10,914 nt of DNA from a virus (taxonomy: Duplodnaviria; Heunggongvirae; Uroviricota; Caudoviricetes). The position numbers were made by a program, and so were the translations under genes. Below are positions 2,964-10,914 of this stretch, in pieces. The notes beneath the pieces were generated by a model. The model was not told the DNA's origin. It worked only from the letters and a program-made list of their open reading frames with translations, and did no database searches. Positions within the stretch are counted from its first letter, which is position 1. Each line of letters opens with the position of its first letter. Where the stretch lies: the IMG/VR virus record IMGVR_UViG_3300010283_000213, positions 1 through 10,914 of that record. One strand, given 5' to 3'.

Positions 2964-3023
2964 CAGGTTTTGTAAATTATTTGTTCGTGGTTGTTTCTGG
3001 CTGTTCAGTGATTCTGGCTGATA

Positions 3024-3132: not shown

Positions 3133-3200
3133 AGTGTCGGGCGGCGCTCCCTCCGTGTTGGTTTCACGTCCTGAATCTTAACCAATACGAGAAAACCTTC

Positions 3201-6201: not shown

Positions 6202-6496
6202 AGCCAGAATTACACCTGATGAAGTCAGGGCACATCTTCGACTTGATGATGATTTATCCGGTGAAGGCGAACTTCTGAAAATGTATACCGATGCGGCGCT
6301 GGAAGCCTGCCAGAAGCATATCGGGAAACGTTTTGAAGACGGGCTGGAATTTACCCCGGCAATGCGTGTTGGTTGCCTGATGTACATCGCTTTCCTGTAC
6401 GAGAACCGGGAAGCGGTTTCACCAGTGGAGCACTCGGAACTGCCTATGGCTATTTCTGCGCTCTGGTCAGTTTATCGTGACGTAGGGGTGTACTGA
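6194..6496 (+). CDS. Head-tail connector / DNA-packaging protein, gp6-like
   Basis: Internal ATG at 6194 preceded by AAGGGAGAA; 100 aa; overlaps portal stop by 8 nt and shares ATGA with the next gene (translational coupling); MSEARITPDEVRAHLRLDDD... resembles gp6-like connector N-termini. Confidence 0.65.
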   Translation: MSEARITPDEVRAHLRLDDDLSGEGELLKMYTDAALEACQKHIGKRFEDGLEFTPAMRVGCLMYIAFLYENREAVSPVEHSELPMAISALWSVYRDVGVY

Positions 6497-6936
6497 TGCC
6501 GTGGCAACCATTAAGGCGATGCACTGAGCCTGGCTGTAATAAGCGCGTGAAGTCCGGCAAGTGTGAAGAGCACAGGCGGGCTGCATGGCGTGCAGAGGAT
6601 GCCAGACGGGGACACCGCCGCGCGCGCGGGTATTCCCGACAGTGGGACAAATACCGCGCCCTGTACCTGAGCAAAAACCCGTTATGCGTGCGTTGTCTGG
6701 CTAAGGGGATTTATACGCCAGCTCTTGTGGTGGATCACATCATTCCCATCAATGGCGGCGGTGATGTTCTCTTCTGGCCTGAGTGGAATCACCAGGCATT
6801 GTGCCAGACGTGCCACAACCGTAAGACGACACGGGAAGATCCAGCCACGAAAGCAAACCGTAAAGCGGGCATGTATCGCGAGCAGGAAGAACGGGCGGCA
6901 CACCGTAACGACTGGATGTATGGCGATGATGACTGA
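6496..6936 (+). CDS. HNH endonuclease (phage terminase-associated HNH)
   Basis: 146 aa; Cys-rich N-terminus (CTEPGCNKRVKSGKCEEH) and HNH motif (VVDHIIPINGGGD...WNHQALCQTCHNRKT); located just upstream of the terminase genes, as in cos-type HK97-like phages. Confidence 0.85.
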   Translation: MPWQPLRRCTEPGCNKRVKSGKCEEHRRAAWRAEDARRGHRRARGYSRQWDKYRALYLSKNPLCVRCLAKGIYTPALVVDHIIPINGGGDVLFWPEWNHQALCQTCHNRKTTREDPATKANRKAGMYREQEERAAHRNDWMYGDDD

Positions 6937-7105
6937 ACAGGAGCAAACCAGGCTGATACGTGGACTGATAAGGCAGCGTGACACATGGAAGACACAGGAG
7001 ACAGAGCACAAAGCCAACAGGACAGGGCGCACAAAACGCACCACAGCGAAGCGATTAACCGACCGTGACCGCGAGGTCATGGAATGTTTTCGCAATCGCT
7101 GGTGA
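6926..7105 (+). CDS. Possible small, highly basic protein (about 59 aa); coding status uncertain
   Basis: Frame-2 ORF whose unique part (6937-7105) lies between HNH and terS; Arg/Lys/Thr-rich product; DNA is A+C-rich and T-poor, so it may instead be non-coding packaging-site DNA. Confidence 0.25.
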   Translation: MMTEQEQTRLIRGLIRQRDTWKTQETEHKANRTGRTKRTTAKRLTDRDREVMECFRNRW

Positions 7106-7180
7106 GGCCGTCAGAGGGGGTGGGGGTGGTTTTCAGGACGAAACCGTCCCTGCCGGACACCGACCGCCCCCTCAAATTTT
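7106..7180. promoter_or_regulatory. GC-rich inverted-repeat element between HNH and terS: candidate cos/packaging recognition region
   Basis: GAGGGGGTGGGGGTGG (7114-7129) facing CCGACCGCCCCCTC (7160-7173), with inner palindromes GGACG..CGTCC and GTCC..GGAC (7135-7159); position HNH-[site]-terS matches where cos lies in HNH-terminase phages. Confidence 0.3.
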
Positions 7181-7224
7181 TGTGCACGGTAATTTTTTTG
7201 AAAATAATTGGGCGAAAAAAGAAC

Positions 7225-7581
7225 ATGGCAAGACCACCAAAAGCCCCCGCTTACCTGGATGAAATCGCGGTCAGGCAGTGGAAGGAAAAATCGCGCCAGC
7301 TTTCCGGGCGGGAAGACCTTACCCCCGCCGACTGGAGCAATCTGGAACTGTATTGCGTTAACTACTCCATATACCGCAAAGCCGTCGAAGACCTTGCGAC
7401 GCGCGGGTTCAGCATTGTTAACAGTCAGGGCAGCGAGAGCAGAAACCCCGCCCTGAGCGCAAAGGCTGACGCAGAAAGAATAATGATCAAAATGGCTTCT
7501 TTGCTGGGTTTTGACCCGGTAAGCCGCCGCAGAAATCCACCGGAAACAGAGGAAGAGGACGAGCTTGACTGCCTGGCATGA
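7225..7581 (+). CDS. terS: Terminase small subunit (P27-family-like)
   Basis: Internal ATG at 7225 (MARPPKAPAYLDEIAVRQWKEK...), 118 aa; the track's 7084 start would run through the GC-rich element; directly upstream of and overlapping the large terminase. Confidence 0.7.
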   Translation: MARPPKAPAYLDEIAVRQWKEKSRQLSGREDLTPADWSNLELYCVNYSIYRKAVEDLATRGFSIVNSQGSESRNPALSAKADAERIMIKMASLLGFDPVSRRRNPPETEEEDELDCLA

Positions 7582-9226
7582 GTACGCAGAAGGCGTAAAA
7601 AACGGCAAAATTACGGCCTGTAAACGACTGAAACAGGCCGTTAAACGGTATTTTTCTGACCTTGAAAACCCCCTTTACACGTTCGATCCGGAGGTCGTTG
7701 AGCGGTTTATTGCCTTTTCCAGGGTGTGTCCGCACGTAAAAGGCGCAATGCGTGGTAGCCCCATTGAGCTGGAGCCGTGGCAGCAGTTCGCCTTTGCGTG
7801 CATCCTGGGCTTTAAGGTTAAGGCCACCGGACGGCGCAAATACACCAGCGCATTCATTGAAGTACCGCGAAAAAATGCCAAATCCACGGTCGCCGCTATC
7901 CTGGCTAACTGGTTTCTGGTTATGGAAAACGGGCAGCAGGATATTTACACCGCCGCCGTGAGTCGTGATCAGGCGCGGATCGTGTTTGATGATGCGCGTC
8001 AGATGTGCCTTTTATCCCGACCGTTACGAAAGCGGGTAAATATTCAGGCACACAAGGTGATACACCCGAAAACCAACAGCCTGTTAAAGCCACTGGCAGC
8101 AAAAGCAGCAACCATTGAAGGTACAAACCCGAGTCTTGCCATTGTGGATGAATATCACCTGCACCCTGACAACGGGGTTTATTCCGCGCTTGAACTGGGA
8201 ATGGGGGCACGCCCAGAGGGGCTGTTATTTGCCATCACCACATCGGGGAGCAACGTTGTTTCAGCCTGTAAACAACACTACGACTATTGCTGCCAGATAC
8301 TGGATGGTGAAGAGGTGAACGAATCCATGTTCGTGCTGATTTATGAGCTGGATGATGAAAGCGAGGTTGACGATCCGGCGATGTGGATAAAGGCGAATCC
8401 CAATATCGATGTTTCCGTAGATCGTGAAAAACTGGCCTCAACCATCCAGAAAGCGCGGGGTATTCCGTCGCAGTGGGTGGAAATGCTCACCAAGCGATTC
8501 AATATCTGGTGTCAGGGGGCTACGCCGTGGATGGGTAACGGTGCATGGGCTGAGTGCGCCGGAACGTTCACGGAGGAAGATTTACACGGTCAGGAGTGTT
8601 ACGCGGGGCTTGATTTATCATCCACAAGCGACATCTCCAGCGTGTGCTATGCCTTTCCGGTTGGTAAAACCATTATGCTGGTTTCTCGTCACTATCTGCC
8701 GGAATTTCAGCTACAGAACCCCGCCAATAAAAACCGCGCCATCTATCGCCAGTGGGCAAAGGCGGGCTGGATACGCACAACACCGGGTGACTGCATTGAT
8801 TATGACCGTATCCGTGATGACATCATGCTGGATGCAGAGAATTTCAATATCAGGCTGGTGGGCTTTGATACGTGGAACGCCACGCACCTGAGAACGCAGT
8901 TACAGGGGGCAGGCTTTGAGGTGGAGCCGTTCCCTCAAACCTACCTTCGTTTCAGTCCGGCGGCGAAATCGTTCGAGGTTTTTGTTAACCGGAAGGTGAT
9001 TGTGCATCGTGGTGATCCTGTGCTGGCCTGGTCAATGAGTAATGTTGTGATGCAGAGTGACGCGAACGCCAATATCAAGCCGAACAAGAAAAAATCATCC
9101 AACAAGATAGACCCGAGCGTTGCGGCGCTGATGGCGTTTGGCACATTCCAGGCTGAGCATGAGGAATTTGCATTTGATATGAGCGACAGCCAGAAAGAGC
9201 GACTAGCGGCGTTTGATGGGGTATGA
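7565..9226 (+). CDS. terL: Terminase large subunit (ATPase + nuclease)
   Basis: 553 aa; Walker A-like PRKNAKST, Walker B-like LAIVDEYH, C-terminal acidic nuclease-type region; TTG start at 7565 overlapping terS end (an alternative downstream start is possible). Confidence 0.85.
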   Translation: MTAWHEYAEGVKNGKITACKRLKQAVKRYFSDLENPLYTFDPEVVERFIAFSRVCPHVKGAMRGSPIELEPWQQFAFACILGFKVKATGRRKYTSAFIEVPRKNAKSTVAAILANWFLVMENGQQDIYTAAVSRDQARIVFDDARQMCLLSRPLRKRVNIQAHKVIHPKTNSLLKPLAAKAATIEGTNPSLAIVDEYHLHPDNGVYSALELGMGARPEGLLFAITTSGSNVVSACKQHYDYCCQILDGEEVNESMFVLIYELDDESEVDDPAMWIKANPNIDVSVDREKLASTIQKARGIPSQWVEMLTKRFNIWCQGATPWMGNGAWAECAGTFTEEDLHGQECYAGLDLSSTSDISSVCYAFPVGKTIMLVSRHYLPEFQLQNPANKNRAIYRQWAKAGWIRTTPGDCIDYDRIRDDIMLDAENFNIRLVGFDTWNATHLRTQLQGAGFEVEPFPQTYLRFSPAAKSFEVFVNRKVIVHRGDPVLAWSMSNVVMQSDANANIKPNKKKSSNKIDPSVAALMAFGTFQAEHEEFAFDMSDSQKERLAAFDGV

Positions 9227-9513
9227 CGAGAATGACTGAAACTGATCTACTAAAAATAATTCGCCGCATTACCGGAATCAGTCAGCAGCCTGACGAACAG
9301 GCTACACAGCCGGACAGCGTGATAGCCGAAAATTACGCGCGTGTGGTGGCTGAGGTAATGCGCCGTGACGGTATTGAGCTTAACGGCGTGGATATGCGCA
9401 ACATACGAACCAGAGTTCTTGAGTTGCTGGCATACCGTCGCCGTTCTCAACAACGGAGGGAGAGCGCGAAAAATACTTACCAGTGGAGGAAGCCGGAGCA
9501 CTTACGGCGGTAA
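9223..9513 (+). CDS. Hypothetical small protein (96 aa), last gene of the packaging operon; possibly a head-completion/adaptor protein
   Basis: ATG overlaps the terL stop (ATGA); Arg-rich C-terminus; no family recognised. The adaptor role is inferred from position only. Confidence 0.5.
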   Translation: MTRMTETDLLKIIRRITGISQQPDEQATQPDSVIAENYARVVAEVMRRDGIELNGVDMRNIRTRVLELLAYRRRSQQRRESAKNTYQWRKPEHLRR

Positions 9514-9552: not shown

Positions 9553-9646
9553 ACTGGTGGCGAGTTGCAGATCTGCAACTCGACTATGAAACTACGGAAA
9601 CTACCCGTAGTTTGGGTAGTAAGAGCAACACCCAGATTTTGGGGCT
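9553..9646. repeat. 94-bp structured direct repeat, copy 1 (contains a 22-bp perfect palindrome and nested heptamer repeats)
   Basis: 90/94 identical to 9987-10080; palindrome CGAGTTGCAGATCTGCAACTCG at 9561-9582; then AAACTAC-GG-AAACTAC-CC-GTAGTTT-GG-GTAGT. Confidence 0.8.
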
Positions 9647-9708
9647 TACTTGCGATACCCAAATATAGGGTATCGGTGGCATCACTGGCCCCACTTTCCT
9701 GATGTGTT

Positions 9709-9862
9709 TGCGGGTTATTTGGGGGTGGTTGCGGGTTATTTTGAATGGCTTGCGGGTTACGATTTGGCTAACATTTGAACGTGTCATTTTTCAACGCATT
9801 GATATTAAATAATAAAAAATACTTAGCACGCGAAGATAACCCGCTAACCCGCATAACCCGCA
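9709..9862. repeat. Second iteron cluster (ori- or crr-like): 3 direct TGCGGGTTA(T/C) at exact 21-bp phasing (9709, 9730, 9751), a ~75-bp AT-rich spacer, then 3 inverted TAACCCGC copies (9836-9862)
   Basis: Same iteron sequence as cluster 1 at 2050-2174; followed by (TA)5 at 9882-9891; no ORF of convincing coding character spans it. Confidence 0.7.
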
Positions 9863-9986
9863 CTGTTTTGTATATATATACGAAAAATTGCATTCAGGAG
9901 GGGGAGCAAAATCCCTACCGTCTCTTATCTCTTGGAGTGCCCGCCTCTTCGAATTTTAACCCCCGTGAAATTACAAAATTTCCCTG

Positions 9987-10080
9987 ACTGATGGCGAGTT
10001 GCAGATCTGCAACTCGACCATGAAATTACGGAAACTACCCGTAGTTTGGGTAGTAAGAGTAACACCCAGATTTTGGGGCT
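9987..10080. repeat. 94-bp structured direct repeat, copy 2; ends exactly at the IS903 left terminus
   Basis: Mismatches to copy 1 at 4 positions; palindrome at 9995-10016; similarity to copy 1 stops at 10080, where the IS terminal inverted repeat begins. Confidence 0.8.
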
Positions 10081-10914
10081 GGCTTTGTTGAATAAATCGA
10101 ACTTTTGCTGAGTTGAAGGATCAGAGCACGTATCTTCCCGACAACGCAGACCGTTCCGTGGCAAAGCAAAAGTTCAAAATCACCAACTTGCCCACCTACA
10201 ATAAAGCCCTCATCAACCGTGGCTCCATAACTTTCTGGCTGGATGATGAAGCCATTCAGGCCTGGTATGAGTCGGCAACGCCTTCATCACGGGGAAGACC
10301 TCAGCGCTATTCTGATCTCGCCGTCACCACCGTTCTGGTCATTAAACGCGTGTTCAGGCTGACCCTGCGGGCTGCACAGGGTTTTATTGATTCCATTTTT
10401 ACACTGATAAATGTTCCGTTGCGCTGCCCGGATTACACCAGTGTCAGCAAGCGCGCAAAGTCGGTTAATGTCAGTTTCAAAACGTTCACCCGAGGTGAAA
10501 TCGCGCATCTGGTGATTGATTCCACCGGGCTGAAGGTCTTTGGTGAAGGCGAATGGAAAGTCAAAAAACACGGCAAAGAACGCCGTCGTATCTGGCGGAA
10601 GTTGCATCTGGCCGTTGACAGCAACACACATGAAATCATCTGTGCAGACCTGTCGCTGAACAACGTAACGGACTCAGAAGCCTTCCCGGGTCTTATCCGG
10701 CAGACTCACAGAAAAATCAGGGCAGCATCGGCAGATGGCGCTTACGACACCCGGCTCTGTCACGATGAACTGCGGCGTAAGAAAATCAGCGCCCTTATCC
10801 CACCCCGAAAAGGTGCGGGTTACTGGCCCGGTGAATATGCAGACCGTAACCGTGCAGTGGCTAATCAGCGAATGACCGGGAGTAATGCGCGGTGGAAATG
10901 GACAACAGATTACA
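10081..10914 (+). mobile_element. IS903-group (IS5 family) insertion sequence, left end and most of the transposase gene; continues beyond the window
   Basis: Starts with GGCTTTGTTGAATAAATCG, which I recognise as the IS903 terminal inverted repeat; the downstream ORF translates to a DDE transposase closely resembling IS903 transposase as I recall it. Confidence 0.85.
10158..10914 (+). CDS. IS903-group DDE transposase, 3'-partial (runs off the window)
   Basis: Hand translation from GTG 10158 is open to the window end (252 codons): VAKQKFKITN...LHLAVDSNTHEIICADLSLNNVTDSEAFPGLIRQ...ASADGAYDTRLCHDEL... Absent from the ORF track only because no stop is reached. Start could also be the TTG at 10113. 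Confidence 0.85.
   Translation, partial: MAKQKFKITNLPTYNKALINRGSITFWLDDEAIQAWYESATPSSRGRPQRYSDLAVTTVLVIKRVFRLTLRAAQGFIDSIFTLINVPLRCPDYTSVSKRAKSVNVSFKTFTRGEIAHLVIDSTGLKVFGEGEWKVKKHGKERRRIWRKLHLAVDSNTHEIICADLSLNNVTDSEAFPGLIRQTHRKIRAASADGAYDTRLCHDELRRKKISALIPPRKGAGYWPGEYADRNRAVANQRMTGSNARWKWTTDY

Follow-up and report, generated by a model that had tools for sequence, protein, structure and literature searches.

The interval between the HNH endonuclease gene and the small terminase gene terS of the window, i.e., of the whole stretch of 10,914 nucleotides that was analysed, is very probably the cos site of a capsid-forming PICI (cf-PICI), of the class found in the phages P27, SfV, and phiE125. A cos site at this position had been proposed in an earlier note on this DNA and was supported by the homology of the interval to cos sites that were mapped in HNH-associated phages having a P27-family TerS. 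The site lies between HNH and terS, is homologous to mapped or annotated cos sites, and is accompanied by a TerS of PF05119 and a TerL of the HK97 type. The mechanism itself is known, and this analysis adds the assignment to a family (by sequence P27/SfV/phiE125 rather than HK97), a prediction of the overhang to the base, the result that the inverted repeat of the interval is not the signal, and the result that the T-poor tract of the interval is a gene of the satellites and not of the related phages.

The features of the region are given below, all on the plus strand.

6496..6936, plus strand, HNH endonuclease gene (Pfam PF01844, E = 9e-10), a packaging accessory nuclease of HK97/P27-type cos systems
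6920..7105, plus strand, small basic protein gene that overlaps the HNH stop (phrog_3173, WP_001251188.1)
6994..7035, plus strand, imperfect 19-nt tandem copy, 6994-7012 and 7017-7035, 79% identical (repeat search)
7116..7141, plus strand, left conserved block, consisting of a G-run and then TTTTCAGGACnA (alignment)
7142..7154, plus strand, variable spacer, free in sequence between lineages and fixed in length (alignment, fixed distances)
7161..7170, plus strand, predicted cohesive end CGACCGCCCC, a 10-nt 3' overhang (alignment to P27, SfI, and phi644-2/phiE125)
7171..7181, plus strand, CTCAAATTTTT, nearly invariant, with which the packaged DNA is predicted to begin on the left
7183..7207, plus strand, right conserved block GCACGGTAATTTTTTTGAAAATAA, putative TerS site, cosB-like (invariance, HK97 analogy)
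7225..7581, plus strand, small terminase gene terS, P27 family PF05119, ATG at 7225 (Pfam, E = 1.6e-23)
7565..9226, plus strand, large terminase gene terL with ATPase and nuclease domains (Pfam PF03354 and PF20441)

By its gene set the window is an E. coli cf-PICI. Elements of this type have been defined as islands of 10-18 kb that carry an integrase, a replication module, and their own capsid and packaging genes, including protease, portal, connector, HNH, TerS, and TerL, and that are without tail or lysis genes (10.1101/2025.02.11.637232), and a gene set as in the window has been described in two cf-PICI preprints (10.1101/2022.09.08.507074; 10.1101/2025.02.11.637232). Pfam searches of the window ORFs identified the major capsid protein, prohead protease, portal, head-tail connector, HNH, TerS, and TerL, as well as a DUF927 primase and an SSB, and no tail or lysis genes among these ORFs. 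The HNH protein was 39% identical to L34 of P27 (E = 5e-19) and 36% identical to gp74 of HK97, TerS was 32% identical to L35 of P27 (E = 1e-17), and TerL was 28% identical to gp2 of HK97 over about 500 amino acids (E = 2e-48). A chromosomal island of E. coli APEC37 matched the 1.3 kb around the HNH-terS interval at 100% identity; according to the RefSeq annotation this island has an integrase upstream and clpS/clpA downstream, and homologues of the interval were found in 515 of the 5426 complete E. coli genomes. Elsewhere in the window a 31-nt inverted repeat (203-233 and 2993-3023, 77% complementary) brackets the primase-SSB block. A 99-nt direct repeat (9553-9651 and 9987-10085, 94% identical) flanks a stretch of low GC content (about 40%) downstream of terL and of a 96-aa ORF of phrog_1561 (9223-9513); short palindromes such as GAGTTGCAGATCTGCAACTC are abundant there, no RefSeq gene is annotated in the region, and it may represent cargo or the boundary of a variable region.

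The interval 6937-7224 corresponds to the gap between the two genes, with HNH ending at 6936 and the ATG of terS at 7225 (Pfam, RefSeq). The earlier description of its composition was accurate as regards the T-poor tract, which contains 7.3% T at 6937-7060 as compared to 21.5% in the whole window (the lowest-T stretch of 124 nt in the whole window begins at 6931), and as regards a GC-rich block (7106-7180, 64% G+C) that is followed by an AT-rich tract (7181-7224, 68% A+T). The additional label A+C-rich was only partly apt, as the T-poor tract contains 38.7% A, 25.8% C, and 28.2% G, and the highest A+C content of the window is found elsewhere, near position 3180. The inverted repeat to which the earlier note had drawn attention is present, with the arms GAGGGGGTGG at 7114-7123 and CCGCCCCCTC at 7164-7173 being complementary at nine of ten positions, but an equally good 10-nt inverted repeat was obtained in 150 of 500 dinucleotide shuffles of 7106-7224. 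With chance performing as well and covariation being absent, the repeat was rejected as a signal. The informative features of the interval are its conserved blocks, and not the inverted repeat as such.

The conserved blocks were determined using a comparison set of 80 related loci from IMG/VR, which comprised 60 unique HNH-terS intervals, and a gap alignment of 19 divergent representatives in which 55 columns were invariant and clustered in blocks. In about 80 related elements the 119-bp gap at 7106-7224 contains three blocks at fixed spacing, namely the G-run (7117-7126), CGACCGCCCC-CTC-AAATTTTT (7161-7181), and T7GAAAATAA (7193-7207). The distances from the G-run to the 10-mer (44 nt) and from the 10-mer to the T-box (31 nt) did not vary in 78 of the 80 copies scored; of the two exceptions, one was off by 1 nt and the other was an artefact of the pattern matching. 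The full order in the alignment was GGGGTGGGGG, a conserved TTTTCAGGAC, the variable spacer, GGnACC, CCTCAAATTTTT (7170-7181), GCnCnG, and TTTTTTTGAAAATAA (7193-7207). The first of these elements, at 7117-7126, was invariant and begins 44 nt before the predicted overhang, and T7GAAAATAA was invariant in all relatives of the 19-sequence alignment, with T7 at 7193-7199 corresponding to +23..+29 from the predicted nick. From the T-box to the ATG of terS the sequence varies freely. The 10-mer motif occurs once in the window, and no deposited phage matched positions 6900-7300. Just left of GGnACC the variable spacer tends to hold a hairpin of 3-4 bp (CCG..CGG in the window, CCT..AGG or CCTC..GAGG in relatives); this may reflect covariation, with a register that shifts between sequences and stems that are too short to judge.

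The cos relatives were reached through phages with a TerS 32-35% identical to that of the satellite. When the gap profile was searched against them with nhmmer (nominal search space of 1 Mb), it matched the cos region of P27 (E = 1.4e-6), the end-to-start junction of phi644-2 (E = 2.8e-4), ST64B (E = 5.5e-3), and phiE125 (E = 0.018). A BLAST search with the end-to-start junction of phi644-2 recovered P27, over its annotated 'cos-site', as well as ST64B, SfII/SfIV/SfV, several Klebsiella phages, and Burkholderia phages, and several of the linear records recovered end at the identical base. The P27 record carries a 10-nt 'cos-site', which is a database annotation, exactly at the aligned position (CGCCCGCCCC). 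The records of phi644-2 and phiE125 end with CGCCCGCTTC and start with GTCAAATTTT; for phi644-2 ten-base 3' extensions have been reported, the right one being 5'-CGCCCGCTTC-3' and the same as the cos of phiE125 (PMC2920897). Run-off sequencing placed the cos site of SfI at TGCCCGCCCC (PMC3636060). The deposited record of SfV begins 7 nt to the left of where the 10-mer aligns, which shows that record ends are not always true ends.

In the anchored alignment CGACCGCCCC (7161-7170)-CTC-AAATTTTT of the window corresponds to CGCCCGCCCC-GTC-AAATTTTT of P27, and the 10-mer of the window aligns ungapped to those of P27 (CGCCCGCCCC), SfI (TGCCCGCCCC), and phi644-2/phiE125 (CGCCCGCTTC). Two satellite loci carry exactly the P27 10-mer CGCCCGCCCC. 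With published 10-nt 3' overhangs as its anchor, the alignment predicts an overhang at 7161-7170, of 3' polarity by analogy; the bottom strand would be nicked at 7160/7161 and the top strand at 7170/7171. The prediction draws on relatives whose TerS is 32-35% identical. The probable cut is thus placed within the C-rich arm of the inverted repeat, and the packaged molecule would have CTCAAATTTTT at its left end, beginning 54 nt before terS.

DNA from particles was consistent with ends in this gap. The record LR881103 (vB_KppS-Ant), which was obtained from particle DNA using a Nextera XT library (PMC8006926), stops at the equivalent of window position 7139, ending with GGTTTTCAGGAC, and restarts 22 nt before terS. 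It is without exactly 69 nt that are found in contiguous copies 99.75% identical to it. The predicted nick divides these 69 nt into 31 and 38, as would be expected if both ends of a linear molecule had been lost in tagmentation. A second record, PQ569648, is derived from a lysate and contains a satellite segment that extends from codon 2 of terS to the last codon of the small gene. It provides weaker support than LR881103 as PQ569648.1 (Klebsiella phage P12620-1, 106.5 kb) looks chimeric, its last 15.9 kb or so (about 90,640-106,503) being a cf-PICI that is joined to unrelated sequence at terS codon 2. Both are Illumina assemblies, the one perhaps trimmed by its authors and the other chimeric, and they bracket the ends of the packaged DNA and do not define them. 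In addition, high-molecular-weight or concatemer bands of the DNA of the cf-PICI KpCIDSM30104 have been attributed to annealed cohesive ends (10.1101/2025.02.11.637232).

Regarding the identity of LR881103, vB_KppS-Ant was published as a filamentous ssDNA phage, and its authors reported >99% identity to a portion of the genome of K. pneumoniae DSM 30104 (PMC8006926); this strain is the host of KpCIDSM30104 (10.1101/2025.02.11.637232). The record encodes capsid, protease, portal, HNH, TerS, TerL, integrase, and primase, and on account of this gene content vB_KppS-Ant is a cf-PICI, almost certainly KpCIDSM30104 itself. Other contig ends were judged uninformative, namely those of Logan contigs of about 16 kb that carry the small gene (of a dozen such candidates two were looked up, and both run straight through the gap) and those of two IMG/VR contigs (L062 and L074) that end near the site and not at it. 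A contig of 1.6 kb from a lysate on E. coli O157:H7 ATCC 43895 (OR845787.1, our L003) carries the satellite HNH-cos-terS region. It was rejected as a copy of EcCIEDL933, since no complete E. coli genome is more than 97.5% identical to it, and for the same reason does not stem from the sequenced version of the propagation host.

A small, conserved and genuine gene accounts for the T-poor tract, which is not a cos accessory sequence. The possible basic peptide that had been pointed out in it earlier is real, as the ORF at 6920-7105 encodes a protein with a pI of 11.1 that is present in RefSeq (WP_001251188.1). Its start may be placed so as to give 61 amino acids (from 6920), 59 (from the ATG at 6926), or 58 (from the ATG at 6929). 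The protein matched phrog_3173 over its full length (E = 6e-27, 57 of 57 profile positions), and contains 12 Arg, 10 Thr, and many Glu, Gln, and Lys residues. The low T content is due to this composition rich in Thr, Arg, Lys, Gln, and Glu together with a 7-codon insertion that is specific to the lineage of the window; according to the protein alignments the insertion is found only there and coincides with the 19-nt tandem copy. Of the 58 codon columns, 33 varied at the first position, 37 at the second, and 50 at the third. The median dN/dS of the gene was about 0.26, i.e., it is under purifying selection, and over the last 16 codons (motif ERDRE-x-x-ECFRNR) pN was 0.13 and pS 0.48. The codon-position bias and dN/dS therefore place the conservation of the gene at the protein level. 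Despite heavy divergence, and with indels that stay in frame, the ORF is intact in nearly all relatives among the 80 IMG/VR loci.

The protein family was represented by 123 clusters; all of them came from Enterobacterales, and each bore the name hypothetical. When the small protein of a sister satellite was searched by tblastn against 50,697 phage records three matches were obtained, all of them satellite DNA, and the window's own small protein matched nothing in the same records. The gene is absent from P27, ST64B, and phiE125, where HNH abuts the G-run. It is likewise absent from two satellite lineages (L052 and L061) that keep all cos blocks, and three copies (L018, L031, and L043) have a premature CGA-to-TGA stop at the equivalent of about 7052 of the window; therefore, the gene is dispensable in at least some elements. 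AlphaFold predicted a long helix and a short helix (pLDDT 78.5), for which the structural searches returned no match in the PDB and none of value in BFVD; there was no Pfam match for the protein. In EcCIEDL933 mutation of the packaging-module gene 'hypothetical gene 1792' severely reduced transfer (10.1101/2022.09.08.507074), and the small gene may be the equivalent of this gene.

By analogy with the characterised systems, packaging may proceed as follows. After induction and replication the P27-family TerS of the satellite would bind the invariant A/T-rich block at about 7183-7207, which is the putative docking site because the T-tract of HK97 (+24..+30) and the T7 of the satellite (+23..+29) take similar positions. 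TerS would then recruit the satellite TerL, and TerL together with HNH would nick both strands 10 nt apart in the C-rich block (7160/7161, bottom; 7170/7171, top), leaving the 10-nt 3' overhang CGACCGCCCC. Packaging would run rightwards, terS first, into the small capsids made by the satellite until the next cos is reached. The G-run 44 nt to the left would form part of the recognition unit and is probably needed for the terminal cut.

The earlier note had also suggested that a cos site of the satellite's own would make packaging specificity independent of any helper. This agrees with cf-PICI genetics, in which mutants in the packaging module of the satellite abolish satellite transfer and the corresponding mutants of the helper phage do not (10.1101/2022.09.08.507074), but the satellite has an almost identical nicking core to P27/SfV-type phages. 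Any private specificity of the satellite therefore probably resides in the right flank at 7183-7207, a flank absent from all deposited phages, where its T7GAAAATAA differs from the phage flank CCCGCGAAAAATGAAATTTAA. A private docking site on a shared nicking core would fit both this difference in flanks and the shorter N-terminus of the satellite TerS, which has 16 residues before the Pfam domain as compared to 53 in P27 and phiE125. A more speculative joint reading, to which we assign a low probability, is that of a hybrid cos. Its nicking core (the G-run at -44, the 10-mer, and TCAAATTTT) may be of the P27/SfV type, and its terminase-docking flank may have been replaced by the T7GAAAATAA box that is read by the N-terminally shortened TerS. 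The phrog_3173 protein, which is found in cf-PICIs and is absent from related phages, may in addition be a cos or terminase accessory factor that helps to keep satellite and helper packaging mutually exclusive, and may be the product of gene 1792.

Several other explanations of the interval were considered. The G-run and the C-run could form an RNA structure (a terminator or attenuator, or a control of terS translation) instead of a site at the DNA level, which we consider unlikely. Although the RNA fold pairs 7114-7123 with 7164-7173, followed by AAAUUUUU, and RNAalifold retained 11 pairs across the 19 sequences, the z-score of the fold was only -1.76 (14 of 200 shuffles folded as well), compensatory changes were found in 0 of the 11 pairs, the covariation term was -0.18, and the gap had no match in Rfam. 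A consensus scan gave terminator-like matches at 7063-7082 and 7108-7123, but a strong terminator would cut terS and terL off from the operon, and nothing convincing emerged from the Rfam, promoter, and terminator scans as a whole. The same two boxes are moreover found in phages in which the C-rich one is the mapped cohesive end. A role at the RNA level could coexist with cos. The T-poor tract at 6937-7105 could for its part be non-coding accessory DNA of the cos site (cosQ-like) with a fortuitous ORF, given that it lies directly left of the cos blocks and that DNA-level conservation is seen in its last 45 nt. This is highly improbable in view of the variation concentrated at third positions (33, 37, and 50 of 58), the dN/dS of 0.26 with a C-terminal pS of 0.48 against a pN of 0.13, a reading frame that stays open at about 60% amino acid divergence with indels in multiples of three, the end-to-end match to a protein family profile, and the two lineages that keep the cos blocks without the tract gene.

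As to the origin of the site, it could have been borrowed from a helper phage and be cut by the helper terminase, as in P4 and the cos-type SaPIs. In P27, SfV, ST64B, and related temperate phages of enterobacteria the 10-mer and its immediate flanks are indeed almost the same as in the satellite, and the two satellite loci with exactly CGCCCGCCCC point the same way. We nevertheless regard a borrowed cos as very unlikely, as the satellite encodes its own HNH, TerS, and TerL, and the prototype cf-PICI needs its own packaging genes, its transfer persisting in helper packaging mutants (10.1101/2022.09.08.507074). T7GAAAATAA is also invariant in the satellites and set against CCCGCGAAAAATGAAATTTAA in the phage flank, and the region 6900-7300 is without a match in deposited phages. 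Headful (pac) packaging, or packaged ends elsewhere (e.g., at the 99-nt repeats at 9553-10085) with the gap serving only as a promoter or regulatory region of terS, is a further alternative; the repeats downstream of terL are unexplained, and the cos ends of this element are predicted by alignment. It appears scarcely credible, however, given that the set of TerL, HNH, and P27-family TerS is that of phages with mapped 10-nt 3' cos ends, that the particle-derived assembly breaks in the gap and not near the repeats, and that cohesive-end concatemers were reported for a close relative (10.1101/2025.02.11.637232). The sole promoter-like match at 6400-7700 was on the minus strand, and was no more than shuffles give. 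A cos site of the satellite itself, cut at or near 7161-7170, is therefore the reading that we retain.

Cf-PICIs are common and move between species by borrowing phage tails only. Knowing the cut site provides a precise handle for the detection of packaged satellites in virome reads and a basis for satellite-specific transducing plasmids. It also raises the question of how the satellite avoids cross-packaging, with a cut site nearly the same as that of P27/SfV-type prophages. Because the mechanism was already known, what is gained is of practical and comparative, not conceptual, value, and the points worth testing are the role of the small protein and that of the private right flank.

Among the known cos systems HK97 resembles the satellite in architecture, having an HNH protein (gp74), a 10-nt overhang, a TerL of the same family, and the same order of G-run, GACCGCC..., cut, and a T7 tract, here at +24..+30; its TerS binds +15..+29 from the cut, including the T-tract (10.1101/2023.07.17.549218). 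The spacing from the G-run to the cut is 40-41 nt as compared to 44 nt in the satellite. In an nhmmer search of the circularised HK97 genome the best match of the gap profile (E = 1.7) lay elsewhere in the genome and not at its cos, and the window TerS had no detectable similarity to gp1 of HK97 (BLASTP, E = 4), which falls outside PF05119. HK97 was therefore rejected as a direct reference by the profile search and the unrelated TerS, and was kept as an architectural analogy. The Burkholderia phages phiE125, phi644-2, and phi1026b share with the satellite the order of HNH, cos, and a PF05119 TerS, and several of the linear records end exactly at the same base. They differ in their distant host phylum, in the last three bases of the overhang, and in a G-run 43 nt upstream.

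Like the satellite, SfI and SfV of Shigella and ST64B of Salmonella have the 10-mer at the aligned position followed by xTC and a T-rich run, and a G-run about 44 nt upstream (44 in SfV). Unlike the satellite they are full-size lambdoid phages with a right flank of the P27 type, and their nhmmer support was weaker. The sequence xTCAAATTTT after the overhang is common to P27, phi644-2, and ST64B. In the Stx2e phage P27 (AJ298298, misc_feature 21806-21815) the order is that of the satellite, i.e., HNH, G-run, 10-mer, xTCAAATTTTT, an A/T-rich tract, and a P27-family terS, and the G-run likewise starts 44 nt before the 10-mer. The P27 10-mer is identical to that of the window at 8 of 10 positions, and to those of some sister satellites at all 10. 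The two differ in the right flank (ACACCCGCGAAATTAAAAATTT in P27, GTGCACGGTAATTTTTTTGAAAATAA in the satellite), in the small gene, which P27 does not have between HNH and the G-run, and in the about 37 extra N-terminal residues of the P27 TerS before the Pfam domain. The P27-type right flank is also found, at about 500-1000 and together with a P27-family TerS, in the 16.5-kb record PQ793804.1 (Salmonella phage As1), which may represent a further satellite lineage that was entered in the database under the name of a phage.

The available text of the cf-PICI preprints gives neither the location of a cf-PICI cos site nor a comparison with phage cos sites. The packaging modules of EcCIEDL933 and KpCIDSM30104 belong to the same type of element as the window and have the same gene order, and such cf-PICIs package their DNA by self-encoded and helper-independent means into small capsids (10.1101/2022.09.08.507074) and have cohesive ends (10.1101/2025.02.11.637232).
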